Positions 915-36,600 of a DNA stretch of 64,000 nucleotides are shown here, piece by piece (positions within the stretch are counted from its first letter, which is position 1; each line of letters starts with the position of its first letter). Source of the DNA: a virus; the IMG/VR virus record IMGVR_UViG_3300050034_000403, positions 25,229 through 89,228 of that record. One strand, written 5' to 3'. The notes below the pieces were generated by a model. That model was not told the DNA's origin, searched no databases, and saw nothing but the letters and a program-made list of their open reading frames with translations. The position numbers were made by a program, and so were the translations under genes.

Positions 915-2372
915 CTAGTTATGATGAAGATGGCACCACACGGTAGGCGTCACTGTTGCCGATGTTGCATTGTATCGGTCTACATTTTCAGCGTAGTCAA
1001 AGCCTGTTGTCCTCACTGTGTTGACGCCTGTTGAACTTCCCCAGCCTTCGGTCGTGTAGGTCGTGCACCCAATGTAGTAATCTGTGTCAGCCTGTGTAGC
1101 AACAACCGGTGAAACCCCACTGAATAGTTGCGTTCCTTGGCAATCAACGCTATTTCCCCCCACGGTCAAGGTGCATCCAGTGAAGCTGAAGTAGTAGTCG
1201 GTTCCCCCCGGGTTTACGCACCCAGAATTAGTAACGGTGCCGGCTGTCGTTGTGCAAAGAGGGTTGGTAGAAGGACCGATAGCCGACAAAATCAACGTGC
1301 CAGACAGCGTAGTCGCACCGCTAACCGCCAAGCTGGTCAGAGTGCCTAAACTGGTCAACGAAGAATTCACCACGGAGGAATTTAGCGTCGTGCCGCTCAA
1401 TGTGCCTGCCGGCGCAATCACTGCATCGGTGCTTATCGCAGTAATCAGTCCTTTGCCATTCACGGTAATCGATGGAATTGCAGTCGAGGAACCAAAGGTA
1501 CCAACGTCTGTGTTTACCGTCGCCAAAGTCAACACCAAGCTACCTGCGGAATTGGTTACATCGCCCGTATGCGCAGGTTCTGCGGCAGCGGGTAATATCG
1601 AGGACAAACTCAAAACCCCATCCGTGTCATAAAGAAAACCGGTTACGGCAGTCAAGGTAGGCAAGGTAATGTTTTCCAGCGCAACAACTGTGGTTGCGCT
1701 TTGGGTCCCGATCACATCTCCGCTTAATACTCCAGAAAATCCTGGGCCTGCCAAATACACATCCGTAATTGTTACCGGCGAAGGATAGACATAAGGCAAG
1801 ATTCCGCCGCTCATGGAAATGTCATATCCCATATTGTCCGCAGCATAAAACAGCCAAGAAGCATCGGTATTGGCCGTAAATGGGTTGGACAATACAGTAT
1901 CGCTGGAATCCGCATAGAGCGTTGCCAACGCCGGTGTCATCGTCGCGGAAACCGATGCTGTCCCCGAGCAAGTCGCTGTCCCGCTAGAAAGCGTTGCAGT
2001 TGTCGGCGCCGTGGAATAGTCGCCACCTGAAGAAATGGTGATCGCCGCCCCGCTTCCAATCGTGTTTGTGCCCGTCAGCGTAACCGTACCGACAGCGTCT
2101 GTCGTGCCCGTCAAGAATGTAACCGTGCAAGTTTGCCCTGTGGTTCCAGTTGCTGTGCCGCCGCTTGTGTAGGAAGAGTTTTTGACGGAGTAGACGGAAT
2201 CGATATACACAGTCACCGTGCAGCTCGGCACCAGGCCTTGGAAACTATTGGAAGAATTCAAGCCAGAAGTCAGCGCCTTGGTTGCGCCAAGGTCACAGTA
2301 GCCGTTCAGCGCTGTTGTCTGCGCGAATAGCGAAGTCGTGAAAAGAAAAATCGCGAATATTGTCTTTTTCAT
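915..2372 (-). CDS. Thr/Ser/Gly-rich putative tail fibre or surface protein with Sec-type signal peptide (485 aa)
   Basis: N-terminus MKKTIFAIFLFTTSLFAQ. Internal GDVT..GS..LTLATVN...GTFGS...ITVNGKGLIT and SSLTSLGTLTSL motifs are typical of phage fibres. Lies at the distal end of the structural operon. Confidence 0.6.
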   Translation of the reverse strand: MKKTIFAIFLFTTSLFAQTTALNGYCDLGATKALTSGLNSSNSFQGLVPSCTVTVYIDSVYSVKNSSYTSGGTATGTTGQTCTVTFLTGTTDAVGTVTLTGTNTIGSGAAITISSGGDYSTAPTTATLSSGTATCSGTASVSATMTPALATLYADSSDTVLSNPFTANTDASWLFYAADNMGYDISMSGGILPYVYPSPVTITDVYLAGPGFSGVLSGDVIGTQSATTVVALENITLPTLTAVTGFLYDTDGVLSLSSILPAAAEPAHTGDVTNSAGSLVLTLATVNTDVGTFGSSTAIPSITVNGKGLITAISTDAVIAPAGTLSGTTLNSSVVNSSLTSLGTLTSLAVSGATTLSGTLILSAIGPSTNPLCTTTAGTVTNSGCVNPGGTDYYFSFTGCTLTVGGNSVDCQGTQLFSGVSPVVATQADTDYYIGCTTYTTEGWGSSTGVNTVRTTGFDYAENVDRYNATSATVTPTVWCHLHHN

Positions 2373-20038: not shown

Positions 20039-20311
20039 ATGGAAAATGAGAACAAAGAAAAACCGATCATCGTCGATCTTGGCCAACGCGAAGACGTGCC
20101 TCGTCCTGAACTCGATCCACAAAAGCTATTGTCTTTTGCGCAGCAAATCCTGATGGTTTTAGTCTTTTTAATGTTTCTGGCTTGCGGGGTTTTATTGCGT
20201 TGGCCCGGATCAAAAGAAGCTCAAACCATCTTTGAACAAGCAAGAACGATTCTCCCGCCAATGGTGACGCTTGTTCTTGGCTTTTACTTTGGCGGTCGTC
20301 ATTCTCGATAA
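20039..20311 (+). CDS. Small two-TM membrane protein
   Basis: Two hydrophobic segments; ends LVLGFYFG. Confidence 0.65.
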   Translation: MENENKEKPIIVDLGQREDVPRPELDPQKLLSFAQQILMVLVFLMFLACGVLLRWPGSKEAQTIFEQARTILPPMVTLVLGFYFGGRHSR

Positions 20312-20324
20312 TTTTTCAGAACAG

Positions 20325-20359
20325 GAATAGCCTGTATGTCTTGTTCATGCGGGCTATTC
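20325..20359. terminator. Hairpin between the plus-strand operon and the minus-strand mini-array
   Basis: GAATAGCCTGTATG...CATGCGGGCTATTC. Confidence 0.55.
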
Positions 20360-20409
20360 TTTATCACTATTCAGAAATTTTCAGGGCAAAAAAGCTGAGC
20401 ATGGCTAAT

Positions 20410-21018
20410 GTTGCGTCTATTCGGCGCACTGTAGAAGCTGTTTGATTGTTGCGCTTATCCAGCGCACTATGACTATCTTGCAACCTTTTTATAGCCAAAA
20501 AGCCGTGATGATTCTCGTGTTGCATCTACTCGATGCACTGAAACTGCCTTGTGACTTTGTGCTATTCCTTGACGCGTTGCGCTTTCTCGGCGCACTCATA
20601 CGTCTATAAATATCCCTTGTGTATTATTGCGCTTATTCAGTGTATTGTTGCGCTTATCCAGCGCACTCCTACTTTGTCGCACATGTTGCATCTCTCCGAT
20701 GCACTTTGACTGTACACCCCTACCTATCCATGTTGCATCTGCTCGATGCACTCATACTGTGCTCCTCAACCTATCCATGTTGCGCCTATGCGGTGCACTG
20801 AAACCGCATTACTGCGAAATCCAAGGCTCACGTACGTTGCATCTTCTCGATGCACTTCAACCAGTCTGCTATACAGCAGACAAAAACGAATGCCAATGGA
20901 GGTTGCATCTGTTCGATGCACTCATACGGATTTGGTACGGGATGCTGTTGTTGCGCTTATCCAGCGCACTAGAACATCTTGTCAGCTCATTCTTCAGGTT
21001 GCGCCTGCTCGACGCACT
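20410..21018 (-). CRISPR. CRISPR array 1: degenerate mini-array (about 13 units, most reduced to the 21-26 nt hairpin handle, short spacers)
   Basis: GTTGC(A/G)nnnnnnnnn(T/C)GCACT units start at 20410, 20448, 20519, 20576, (20626), 20647, 20685, 20732, 20779, 20836, 20902, 20950 and 20998. Four of them (20448, 20519, 20779, 20836) are full 37-nt repeats of the family in arrays 2-4. Confidence 0.8.
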
Positions 21019-21029
21019 CATATGACACC

Positions 21030-21062
21030 TCAATACTTTGCGCCAAGCCCCCGCGTTGTCAA
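21030..21062 (-). promoter_or_regulatory. Putative sigma70 promoter driving mini-array 1
   Basis: Minus strand TTGACA-N16-CAAAGTATTG; the same TTGAC...GGCGCAAAGTATTG layout occurs at 34024..34056 (+). Confidence 0.5.
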
Positions 21063-21071
21063 CAAATTTCT

Positions 21072-21599
21072 TTAGCTCCGCGATGCCAGAATTTTGGTTG
21101 CCTCAGTCAATGTAATCATAAGCGTTTGTGGATTGATCGGCGAAGCGATGAAGCCGTATTTCTCGTAGAACTGTTTTGCATCCTTAGAAATTGCATTTAC
21201 CAAAACCGCACGAATGCCGGCAATCTCAGCAGCCTGCAAAGTGCGCAAAACCGCATCCCGCAAAAGATCCGCCCCAATCCCGCGATGCTGAAAGTGTTCA
21301 TCCACAGCCAGTCGTCCGATCAGCATCACGGGCACTGGATCGGGCATGTTGCGCTTGATGCGTGTGGGTGCCTCGACATGTGCCACAGCACCAGTCGCCA
21401 GCGCATAAAAACCAACGACATGACCTTCTGAGCACACCACTTTAGTACGCGATGCTCCATTCTTCTCGTTTTGAAGTGCCCGCGTCTTCAACCACAGATT
21501 GAGAGATGATTCGCCACAGCAGAATTGCGTAAGATCATGTTCCACTGTCAGCTTTTCTGGAGCGGTAATACGGATCTTGGACGCCTCTACTCCTCCCAC
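21072..21599 (-). CDS. GNAT acetyltransferase toxin (TacT/AtaT family)
   Basis: FCCGESSLNLWLK, VVGFYAL, PVMLIGRLAVD...GIGADLL..A, FYEKYGF. Confidence 0.92.
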   Translation of the reverse strand: MGGVEASKIRITAPEKLTVEHDLTQFCCGESSLNLWLKTRALQNEKNGASRTKVVCSEGHVVGFYALATGAVAHVEAPTRIKRNMPDPVPVMLIGRLAVDEHFQHRGIGADLLRDAVLRTLQAAEIAGIRAVLVNAISKDAKQFYEKYGFIASPINPQTLMITLTEATKILASRS

Positions 21600-21871
21600 G
21601 ATGGTTTCCTCGCTAGCAGCTTTGCCAGTTTTGGGTTGGACTTGGGAGGATTGTCTAGCATGTCATTGAAGCGTTGGAACTCTTCTTTCCCGAGACGGAA
21701 GTAGCAGCGATCAAGCAAAATCGCTTCCGCTTCCCTGCACGCCGCATCCAGCATGAAATCCGTGCGGTTCCTTCCCAGCACTTCTGCTGCACTATCAATT
21801 AATGTCTTTTGCCGCAGATTGGCACGCAAATTGATGTTCGTAGCCCGCAATTCAGCAACGACAGAACCCAT
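21587..21871 (-). CDS. DUF1778 RHH antitoxin (TacA/AtaR family)
   Basis: INLR....QKTLIDSAAEVLGRNRTDFML.AA..EA...F...LDNPP..N..L..LL....WE. Confidence 0.92.
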   Translation of the reverse strand: MGSVVAELRATNINLRANLRQKTLIDSAAEVLGRNRTDFMLDAACREAEAILLDRCYFRLGKEEFQRFNDMLDNPPKSNPKLAKLLARKPSWEE

Positions 21872-21933
21872 GACCCACCTCCTGAATGTATACACAATGA
21901 GCGTACAGCATCGTGCGCACAATGTAAAGCGCC

Positions 21934-24236: not shown

Positions 24237-24602
24237 ATGGCATACGAAACGGCAGAGCAACTTGCAGCGGTACAGGCATGGGCAAAGCAGCACGGGCGCA
24301 CGTGGAAAGCGGCATTGCGCGCGGCATGGGCGAGCGGAGACTATCAGGGTTTCGACGGCGCGCCGCTTTTGCAGCAACTACGAAACGCGTTTGGGCCGTC
24401 GTGGCTTTTGTCGTTTCGTTTGCCGGTTGACGCGCCCGCGCCGGTAGATCCTGCCCGCGTGAAGTGGATGGAGTCCATCTTGGCGAACGATACGCGCTCA
24501 ACAGACTATGAGCTGGGGCTGTTTTTCATCGCGCATGCCGTGCCGGAAGCCATGGCGAAAAGTTACATTGCGCATCGTACCGATTACCGCAACTCGCTCT
24601 AG
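24237..24602 (+). CDS. Hypothetical early protein
   Basis: 121 aa; WAKQHGRTWKAAL...LQQLRNAFGPSWL motif typical of small phage and plasmid proteins. Confidence 0.65.
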   Translation: MAYETAEQLAAVQAWAKQHGRTWKAALRAAWASGDYQGFDGAPLLQQLRNAFGPSWLLSFRLPVDAPAPVDPARVKWMESILANDTRSTDYELGLFFIAHAVPEAMAKSYIAHRTDYRNSL

Positions 24603-34964: not shown

Positions 34965-35204
34965 ACATGCAGATCATCTTGCGGCAACTCGACAGCGACG
35001 ACTTTGGAAAGATGCTGAAAGTCTGCAAAAGCTCACGCGAACGGTTTTACCTGGAAGCCGCGCGCATTAATCCAAACTTTGAATACCACATCGATCTGCC
35101 CGGCCCCGATGGCCCTACCAAACCCGTCGACATGCAAACGTGGCTTGCCGACAAAGAAAGGTTCCCCGACGACTGAGCAAAATGATGGCACAATGGGAGG
35201 TCAA

Positions 35205-35912
35205 ATGACGGAAAAAGTACACTTTCGCAAGGATCTGACAGGCAAAGTCTTTGGTCGGCTTACTGTAACGGGATACTCGCATCAAGCCGGAAAGTCATCG
35301 GTTTGGAACTGCCTTTGCGTCTGCGGAAATACGACTCAAGTTCGCCAAAGCAATCTTACGAGGGGCGGCGTTGTTTCCTGTGGTTGCCGCAGAAAAGAAA
35401 TTCAAAATCACATCAAGTTCTATTCTCCAGAATCTGCTCTTACGCATGGCTGCGCTCGCACACGGTTAGGAAAAAGGACTGCTGTCTATACGATATGGTG
35501 TGGGATGAAACGGCGTTGTTCTTCACCAAAATGCAAATGCTTTTCGTACTACGGCGGACGTGGAATCAAAGTCTGCAAACGATGGGAAAAGTTTGAAAAC
35601 TTCCTGGCGGATATGGGTAAGCCAAAACCGGGAATGACACTTGACCGCTTTCCGGATAAAGACGGCGATTATGAACCGACAAATTGCCGATGGGCTACAT
35701 GGAAAGAGCAGGCAAACAATCAACGCCCCCGTTCATTTTTCATTGACAAGCCTGAACATGCTGACATTTTGCAGAAAATCTTATCGCTGCACTCTTTGGG
35801 CAAAACTACCAGAGATATTGCAGACGTGCTGAATTCTATGAAAATTATGTCACCCCGTGGAAAATGCTGGTGGGGATCAGGCATTGATCGTATCTTGCGC
35901 AATCATCGATAG
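35205..35912 (+). CDS. HNH-type homing endonuclease fused to a recombinase-type DNA-binding domain
   Basis: DLTGKVFGRLTV, WNCLCVCG, YYGGRGIKVCKRW..FENFLADMG, TLDR...NCRWATWKEQANN; C-terminal G.T.R.IAD.LN...I....G..W.....RIL. Confidence 0.8.
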   Translation: MTEKVHFRKDLTGKVFGRLTVTGYSHQAGKSSVWNCLCVCGNTTQVRQSNLTRGGVVSCGCRRKEIQNHIKFYSPESALTHGCARTRLGKRTAVYTIWCGMKRRCSSPKCKCFSYYGGRGIKVCKRWEKFENFLADMGKPKPGMTLDRFPDKDGDYEPTNCRWATWKEQANNQRPRSFFIDKPEHADILQKILSLHSLGKTTRDIADVLNSMKIMSPRGKCWWGSGIDRILRNHR

Positions 35913-35919
35913 GAGAAAA

Positions 35920-36600
35920 ATGGAAGCTGTTTCATATATGCGGTGTTCTGGCGAAAGCCAAGTTCTCGGCGATACGTGGGAACGTCAGCGCGCAGTTATC
36001 GTTAAATATGCCGCCGCCAATGAAATTGCAATTGTCGATGAATTCCGGGATGAAGGCGTAACAGGCAAGATGGAGTTGGAAGGACGTGCCGGTCTTTCAG
36101 CCTGCATACAATTCATCCGTGAAAAGGGAATCAAGCTTGTTTTGGTTGAGTCCAGCGACAGATTGGCCCGCGACATGATCGTGGCAGAAGTTGTTGTACG
36201 CGAGTTTCAAAAGATTGGAGTTCGCGTCATTTCTGCGTCTGGCGGTATCGATCTAACCGAGGGAGACGATTCCAACCCCACGGCTAAACTAATTCGTCAG
36301 ATTCTAGCGGCCGTCGCCGAGTTTGATCGCTGCGTAATCGTACTTAAGCTACGCGGTGCGCGCCAGCGCAAAAAGGCTAGGGGAGAACGAGGAGATGGCC
36401 GGCACGCCTTTGGAGAAAAGCCTGGAGAAGCCGTGGTTCTCGCACAGATTCGTGCGTTAAAGGCCCAAGGAGAGACGATCAGGACCATTGCCGACACCTT
36501 GAACGCCGCCGCCATTCCAACGCGCATGGGGGGCACCTGGAAGGCCGGGACGGTGGCAAAGATCCTTGCTCGTGAGAAATTTCACAGCGCTTGCGCGTGA
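35920..36600 (+). CDS. Serine recombinase (resolvase catalytic domain plus short recombinase DNA-binding domain)
   Basis: YMRCS catalytic motif, DEGVTG, SDRLARD, AEFDR. Confidence 0.9.
   Translation: MEAVSYMRCSGESQVLGDTWERQRAVIVKYAAANEIAIVDEFRDEGVTGKMELEGRAGLSACIQFIREKGIKLVLVESSDRLARDMIVAEVVVREFQKIGVRVISASGGIDLTEGDDSNPTAKLIRQILAAVAEFDRCVIVLKLRGARQRKKARGERGDGRHAFGEKPGEAVVLAQIRALKAQGETIRTIADTLNAAAIPTRMGGTWKAGTVAKILAREKFHSACA

Follow-up and report, generated by a model that had tools for sequence, protein, structure and literature searches.

What becomes of a CRISPR array in which most repeats have been shortened to little more than their hairpin, and can such an array still be of use to the phage that carries it? 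This question is raised by a locus of 614 nt (20410-21023) in a 64,000-nt window of viral DNA, which corresponds to bases 25229-89228 of one 89,228-bp viral contig (unless stated otherwise, positions are those of the window). The locus, here called the mini-array, contains 12 copies of a 26-nt hairpin unit and one broken copy, all on the minus strand (Table 1). The unit is the 3' "handle" of the 37-nt repeat that makes up four regular arrays of the same phage and has the form TTGC-N11-GCAC on the plus strand.

The first-pass annotation of the window expected the handle to be recognizable by a covariance model across related phages, and this is the case. For our model we took 83 distinct 26-nt hairpins of other arrays, which belong to cas12 loci and related phage loci. 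It recovered each of the 12 units (25.9-38.8 bits, E-values from 1.8e-6 to 4.8e-11) and each of the 39 regular repeats of the window (34.8-39.6 bits), every one on the minus strand, and gave no match outside the arrays better than E 0.3 in the 64 kb. The mini-array is real, far beyond what chance would produce. The broken copy was not detected by the model, an Rfam search returned no family for the mini-array, and folds of the whole array were uninformative. We discarded two plus-strand open reading frames across the mini-array (132 and 109 aa) as artefacts that arise from the repetition of the hairpin.

The start-to-start periods are 48, 48, 66, 57, 47, 47, 38, 71, 57, 71 and 38 nt, compared to about 71 nt in the regular arrays; the short periods of 38, 47 and 48 nt reported before are thus accompanied by others of 57, 66 and 71 nt. 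In minus-strand order, the gaps between hairpins measure 28, 28, 46, 37, 27, 27, 18, 51, 37, 51 and 18 nt, whereas the regular gap is 51 nt. This range of 18-51 nt contrasts with 46-56 nt in 290 regular gaps of the family. A position matrix of the repeat 5' half, derived from 174 distinct regular repeats, identified three units as full repeats (HP5, HP10, and HP11, with matrix scores of 6.8, 10.3, and 8.8), found weak 5'-half similarity in five others (HP2, HP3, HP4, HP6, and HP8; p 0.02-0.08 each, p 2e-4 for five out of eight) and none in HP7, HP9, and HP12. By hand comparison, 13 of the 17 positions upstream of HP3 agree with a repeat 5' half seen in a related locus (L044). The nine non-full units have lost their 5' 11 nt or keep them in degenerate form, and their spacers span 0-29 nt instead of the usual 34 nt.

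The description of the units as hairpin-only stands insofar as all 12 model matches keep the 26-nt handle, but "handle-only" is overstated because several units look like decayed full repeats with true spacers of 0-13 nt. Five units may have spacers of that size by the position matrix, so neither the proposed guide length of 12-22 nt nor the term "pre-trimmed guides" fits the array, the latter being too clean. Full repeats were also said to flank 20-nt spacers: two of them do follow such a spacer, but HP11 follows one of 34 nt. The mini-array grew by duplication: a unit of 47 nt and another of 21 nt are duplicated, and the GCGCT hairpins of HP2, HP8, and HP11 are identical. HP6 and HP7 form the 47-nt duplicate, and the hairpin before HP6 and the one before HP7 are followed by the same 10 nt (ATGGATAGGT).

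Table 1. Position of the mini-array units, of neighboring and regular-array features, and of cas12 genes in related loci.
Feature	Position	Strand	Remarks
HP1	20998..21023	-	6-nt lead ATATGA plus 20-nt hairpin; stem GCGTC/GGCGC with one G-U; 28.1 bits; first unit after putative transcription start
HP2	20950..20975	-	stem GCGCT/AGCGC; weak repeat similarity in 11 nt upstream; 28-nt gap to HP1
HP3	20902..20927	-	stem GCATC/GATGC; 28-nt gap
HP4	20836..20861	-	preceding 46-nt gap (guide g3) has its own 7-bp hairpin
HP5	20779..20815	-	full 37-nt repeat after 20-nt spacer g4; score 6.8; A-C mismatch in RNA sense
HP6	20732..20757	-	47-nt tandem duplicate with HP7
HP7	20685..20710	-	followed by 18 nt before HP8
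HP8	20647..20672	-	stem GCGCT/AGCGC
Broken copy of HP8	20626..20646	-	21-nt tandem duplication (TRF period 21); four of six stem pairs
HP9	20576..20601	-	followed by 20-nt spacer g9, identical in four phages
HP10	20519..20555	-	full repeat; score 10.3; inside the 122-nt core 20519-20640
HP11	20448..20484	-	full repeat after normal 34-nt spacer g10; score 8.8
HP12	20410..20435	-	last unit; C-A stem mismatch in RNA sense
Weak promoter-like site	21033..21062	-	TTGACA (21062-21057), 18 nt, -10 AAGTAT
Hairpin	20323..20361	+	16 bp
tacA-tacT-like toxin-antitoxin pair	21072..21922	-	Pfam TacA1 2.9e-24, and GNAT
Regular array A2	36664-37968		
Regular array	41253-41990		
Regular array A4	63393 to contig end		contig breaks inside A4
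Regular array	contig 1555-1980	opposite strand	
Conserved leader (about 50 nt), arrays A0 and A2	37969-38020	-	second copy at contig 1490-1550 (+)
Overlapping serine-recombinase ORFs	35079-36600	+	just upstream of A2
cas12 family, example	L017:8688-10925	-	
cas12 family, example	L046:10001-14207		
cas12 family, example	L048:10001-14237		
cas12 family, example	L063:548-2737		
Hairpin upstream of cas12	L063:505-547		
Hairpin upstream of cas12	L052:5966-6000		
Hairpin upstream of cas12	L056:1379-1413		
Hairpin upstream of cas12	L080:5959-6000		
Hairpin upstream of cas12	L084:1102-1143		
Hairpin upstream of cas12	L047:2123-2184		

The phage is temperate and its host is a peat-soil bacterium. It encodes a large terminase, tail fiber, integrase, RecT with a PD-(D/E)XK nuclease, primase-helicase and endolysin. 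One 37-nt repeat family gives rise to its four regular arrays with a spacer of 34 nt. Arrays A0 and A2 share a conserved leader with the element TTGAYC-N19-TATAAT about 7 nt from the first repeat, directed to minus-strand RNA in the window, which the consensus promoter scan missed because its -35/-10 spacing is 19 nt. Repeats are heterogeneous in every orphan array of this phage family. No cas gene was recognized among the large and array-adjacent ORFs of the 89-kb contig (Pfam, PHROGs, PADLOC), which are phage structural, replication and recombination genes only. The two overlapping ORFs upstream of A2, both with serine-recombinase domains, may represent a frameshifted or duplicated recombinase gene. 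A short 18-nt spacer (TTACAAGGACC...) is common to A2 (36753-36788, minus strand) and a cas12-adjacent array of a related locus (L063:3468-3502), with one mismatch; it contains the motif CAAGGA, also present in g9 and in some repeat 5' halves.

The repeat is present in many IMG/VR phages, and a scan of genome contigs retrieved it from one prophage in a Terracidiphilus MAG. In a related phage a 745-aa ORF lies directly upstream of an array on the same strand. This protein, one of a family of 730-770 aa found in the related loci, is identified as a Cas12 and the cognate effector, with Cas12m as its closest structural relative. It has a Cas12f1-like TNB domain (Pfam, 7.7e-7) and a weak sequence match to Cas12m chains (phmmer, 1.8e-5). 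Its AlphaFold model (pLDDT 82.9) retrieved Cas12m2 as best Foldseek match (8hhl, E 6e-19; also 8hio and 8pm4), followed by Cas12f and then TnpB. The family comprises about 100 clusters, and the few named members are called "zinc ribbon domain-containing protein [Terracidiphilus sp.]". Its members keep an acidic RuvC triad, D/E-E-D (GL[DE][IV]GW, xxE, and QDxN in 23 out of 25 aligned members and in L063 and L077), whereas Cas12m has the non-canonical triad H-D-D (PMC10442227). Given this acidic triad, the binding-only gene repression proposed for the mini-array does not follow. In about one third of the family, the L017 protein among them, Glu replaces Asp in the first RuvC motif (GLEIGW), whereas Asp is present in the closest relatives of this phage.

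With an effector about 150 aa longer, an acidic triad, and cas4-cas1-cas2 in some loci, the Cas12m-related family looks like a type V subtype separate from V-M. Loci L046 and L048 have the gene order cas12-cas4-cas1-cas2-array with uniform repeats. In the 6 IMG/VR and 44 JGI loci with cas12, the arrays, wherever found, are on the cas12 strand with the hairpin last and mostly downstream of the gene. The repeat family and orientation of the mini-array are the same as in these cas12-adjacent arrays, which bears out the earlier reading: a repeat RNA read on the minus strand with its hairpin at the repeat 3' end fits type V logic, and the units keep the part that corresponds to the mature Cas12 handle.

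Where the effector of this phage resides is suggested by synteny. Loci L063 and L077 match the window at 62033-63332 with 91-96% identity and carry cas12 immediately upstream of the equivalent array, so that the cas12 gene of this phage presumably lies just past array A4, beyond the contig end, or else the protein may come from a co-resident prophage. A search for the Cas12 protein in ten related records was negative, which says little as most of them are fragments, and cas1 was not found in the Terracidiphilus MAG and four viral records.

We put the odds at about one in two that the mini-array is an expressed, compacted orphan type V array, yielding crRNA-like RNAs that comprise a few usable guides and a larger set of handles occupying Cas12. 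It would be transcribed on the minus strand, either by read-through from the tacAT-like genes or from its own weak promoter, and Cas12 would bind and cut at each handle, so that short crRNA-like RNAs are released. The retention of the handles would then be due to their loading of Cas12. With at least 20 nt of spacer, four or five of the RNAs (g3, g4, g9, g10, and the terminal one) could guide normally, and the others, with a spacer too short to license cleavage, might only occupy Cas12 or bind by their seed. The net effect may resemble that of viral Racr and Cracr arrays, with guides and Cas12-occupying handles that would act in conflicts between phages that carry Cas12. Against this stand the absence of cas12 from the 89-kb contig and the consideration that decoys would also blunt the Cas12 and the arrays of the phage itself.

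The signals for transcription are less clear than first described. The TTGACA element assigned to an own promoter is present, but its -10 element agrees with the consensus at only three of six positions and our consensus promoter scan reported no promoter there (21033..21062). The hairpin beyond the other end of the mini-array (20323-20361) had been taken as its terminator; it folds more strongly on the plus strand (-24.1 vs -15.8 kcal/mol) and is not followed by a U-run on the minus strand, and is therefore better explained as the terminator of the converging plus-strand ORF 20039-20311. A tacAT-like pair lies directly upstream of the mini-array on the same strand and is a possible source of read-through transcription. 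As to a transcript, which the earlier reading implied, contigs from three peat RNA libraries match exactly or near-exactly over 20379-20941 and 20977-21232, and the second runs from the end of the tacT-like gene into the first unit; being assembled contigs, they give neither strand, ends nor levels and may derive from DNA carry-over, which limits their weight for the preferred reading. The parts of the stretch outside this cover were not used as evidence. A T6 run lies 16 nt beyond HP12 (20393-20388), and RNA-library contigs end at 20379 and 20387. Contigs of another short-gap array, of the L013 type, were found as well. Fourteen DNA runs from peat or permafrost, belonging to 10 studies, contain every sampled word of the mini-array.

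The handle consists of a 6-bp stem, a 5-nt loop, a flanking invariant G and A, which could pair as G-A, and a final invariant C. Across the family, three of the six stem pairs change on both sides (52 cells), with seven Watson-Crick variants, and imperfect stems read in the minus sense are G-U in 21 distinct hairpins vs unpaired in four. To this extent the compensatory changes claimed for the stems hold, but TGCGCC/GACGCA, one of the examples given, is not a compensated pair on the plus strand. Three of the 12 mini-array stems (HP5, HP9, and HP12) have an A-C mismatch in the RNA sense, compared to six of 246 in the regular arrays (p 0.006), and seven units, all with G-C-rich stems (GCGCT and related), score 26-31 bits vs 35-40 for regular repeats. 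The raised mismatches and lower scores argue against strict maintenance of the handle and also count against the preferred reading. They would be expected if the mini-array were a functionless relic, an orphan array without Cas1-Cas2 that decays by point changes, deletions and duplications and is transcribed incidentally. The faintly recognizable 5' halves, the internal duplications, the lack of targets and the heterogeneous repeats of all orphan arrays in this phage family point in the same direction.

Other features of the same units are at odds with simple decay. At the strongly conserved positions, agreement of the nine non-full units with the consensus is 83% in the handle vs 43% in the 5' part (p 4e-9). 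It is 74% (p 0.01) at the lead positions -6 to -1, on which detection did not rely, and positions -17 to -7 are not conserved. All nine shortenings spare the 26-nt handle, with a probability of about 4e-5 under a random-deletion model, a figure that rises somewhat if the HP6/HP7 duplicate is counted once. The contrast between handle and 5' part and the spared handles suggest that the handle was under selection or that the deletions arose by a biased process.

Comparison with related phages cuts both ways. The array as a whole is not kept: only a 122-nt core (20519-20640), in which g9 (20 nt) is accompanied by a full repeat and a hairpin with a GCGC stem, is shared with three other phages, at 94% identity in L009 and as a 91-nt part in L011 and L018. 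In locus L016, syntenic on the left flank, the site is occupied by a small array with a regular period, and the compressed state is therefore derived. Both observations support decay and count against the preferred reading. On the other side, g9 is identical in the four phages while neighboring loop and lead bases differ, and one nearly complete phage (L011, genome G207, 94% complete) has retained three handles of the core homologue only and no cas12 gene. Short gaps also occur family-wide (27 of about 320 distinct gaps, clustering at 17-20, 27-30, and 35-38 nt), in at least eight other loci including L004, L013, L021, L075, and L078. We count the G207 phage and these short-gap units in favor of use in trans. 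With RNA-library contigs covering the stretch in addition, a mere relic appears possible but doubtful.

Only tentatively would we go further in the opposite direction and regard the mini-array as a natural, compact cassette of 12 minimal Cas12 crRNA-like units, shaped by selection rather than by decay alone. Temperate Acidobacteria phages with the new Cas12m-related nuclease would in that case employ it against one another, loading a rival or their own Cas12 with a few fixed guides and many empty handles.

A dedicated regulatory array of the crlRNA, CreA/CreR or Cracr type, with seeds that pair with cas, toxin or phage promoters and Cas12 acting as repressor, should reveal itself by its targets. 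No guide had a target above chance, apart from a borderline one. In the contig of the phage itself (20-nt windows and exact seeds), this exception was g3, with a 13-nt prefix match inside a 1548-aa tail-fiber-like gene (family-wise p 0.03) and a 17/20 match between the nuclease and RecT genes; the two sites of g3 are near contig position 24440 and at window 61838-61857. Among 34 distinct cas12 upstream regions, the longest seed prefix was 9 nt, within the null, and when the array was compared by BLAST to 201 host-family genomes, the matches were no more than hairpin-sized or due to chance (the unpublished genomes G007, G178, and G030 are included for this negative result only). GenBank phages gave no match. 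BLAST of 201 spacers of the family against 520 kb of related loci returned array-to-array matches and no protospacer; exact IMG/VR scans with g9, one phage spacer and two leader-proximal spacers of L046 and L048 returned the arrays themselves only, g9 being found inside mini-arrays alone. The guide searches were PAM-independent, and the IMG/VR scans cover exact matches only. This lack of a protospacer or seed target also weighs on the preferred reading.

The best of the host-genome matches, L032:1500-1540 and L036 (genomes G094 and G031), fall in a conserved host coding region and are probably due to chance; the 35-nt stretch corresponds to part of g5 and hairpin HP6 at 86-92%. Thirty of the 201 spacers begin with TT (1 in 16 expected; p 9e-6), often with TTTG, which may be PAM carry-over and a hint of a T-rich 5' PAM.

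Regulation is nevertheless suggested by several details. True spacers of 10-13 nt have the seed-only size of CreR and Cracr RNAs (bioRxiv 10.1101/2024.10.29.618823), the duplicated g5 and g6 share their first 10 nt while the next 17 differ at seven positions, the predicted effector fold is closest to the DNA-binding Cas12m, and a toxin-antitoxin pair adjoins the array. Given the target searches, the D/E-E-D triad in place of H-D-D and two units with just 12 nt between their handles, we consider a regulatory array improbable, even allowing for the g3 match.

On the plus strand, the repeat end ATTGCGAC resembles class 1 tags, and three of the four imperfect mini-array stems would be G-U. A repeat of class 1 that is processed by Cas6 and bears an 8-nt tag, or hairpins that bind DNA or protein and are unrelated to Cas12, are nonetheless very improbable, and the class 1 version was rejected. 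Arrays in cas12 loci, wherever found, lie in the other orientation on the cas12 strand, the family favors G-U pairs over mismatches in the minus sense (21 vs 4), and the promoter of the conserved leader is directed to the minus strand. Class 1 cas genes did not turn up in the loci covered (five records searched for cas1, and the annotated cas12 loci), and the mini units lack the supposed tag.

Several known systems resemble the compacted orphan array that we prefer. Racrs are solitary repeat units that do not stand beside other repeats, with V-A examples (Camara-Wilpert et al. 2023, PMC10651486). The mini-array would share with them the principle of a phage repeat mimic binding a Cas protein without a useful guide, but its 12 clustered units in 614 nt are mixed with full repeats and normal spacers, and four further arrays are present. 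The Cracr arrays described have two to three spacers and are of type I, and a V-A mature RNA consists of a 19-nt handle and a 21-nt spacer (Liu et al., bioRxiv 10.1101/2024.10.29.618823). They are defined by a seed match of at least 9 nt, with PAM, to a cas or creT promoter (bioRxiv 10.1101/2024.10.29.618823). The mini-array is likewise phage-encoded outside a cas locus, with degenerate repeats that keep the Cas-binding handle, short spacers and stacked units. In contrast to Cracr arrays, it has 12 units, belongs to a non-V-A type V family in a phage lineage that itself possesses an effector and large regular arrays, and shows no PAM-proximal promoter match of 9-10 nt or more, the 13-nt match of g3 lying in a structural gene. 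The mini-array is thus neither a Racr nor a Cracr by their defining tests, as its units are clustered and no seed match to a promoter was found.

Virus mini-CRISPR arrays consist of one or two full spacers between full repeats, with spacers that match related viruses (PMC11656645). They are also orphans that rely on an effector elsewhere and are thought to serve inter-virus competition, and the three-unit version of G207 comes close to them; most repeats of our mini-array are truncated or degenerate, however, and no protospacer was found. Type V-M (Cas12m; PMC10442227, PMC11013384) has the closest effector fold, the same handle layout and a mobile-element setting, but the present family differs in effector length and triad and in the cas4-cas1-cas2 genes of some loci. 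In the Cas12m2 scaffold, a G-A pair closes a 6-bp stem and C(-1) is read by its base (PMC10442227), a likeness to our handle that we draw by reading the two descriptions.

If the RNAs are processed and loaded, the mini-array would be a natural compact multiplex Cas12 array with a 26-nt handle and spacers of at most 22 nt, and RNA anti-CRISPRs and crRNA-like regulators would extend to a new phage-borne Cas12 family. Should it be a selected cassette, it would be the first multi-unit array of the Racr/Cracr type in a type V system outside V-A, in which evolution has trimmed the handle at the boundary that engineers choose for minimal arrays. Even as a relic, it would show how an orphan type V array decays, with the hairpin outlasting the other parts of the repeat. 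Beyond the locus itself, Terracidiphilus phages of peat commonly encode the unannotated Cas12m-related family with its acidic triad, and the repeat family forms many orphan, highly mosaic arrays across single phage genomes.

The host crlRNA elements CreA and CreR, according to the summary in the Cracr preprint, combine a degenerate repeat with a partial spacer, lie inside cas loci and target a neighboring promoter (bioRxiv 10.1101/2024.10.29.618823). The mini-array shares with them the degenerate repeat and partial spacer, but lies about 43 kb from the expected cas12 site and has no matching target; a further likeness is a handle hairpin just upstream of cas12 in related loci. In about ten of 30 cas12 loci, such a repeat-handle hairpin precedes the start codon of cas12 by 15-45 nt, on the gene's strand. 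This places the ribosome-binding site at the guide position, and the hairpin might serve the cas12 mRNA in self-processing or autoregulation.
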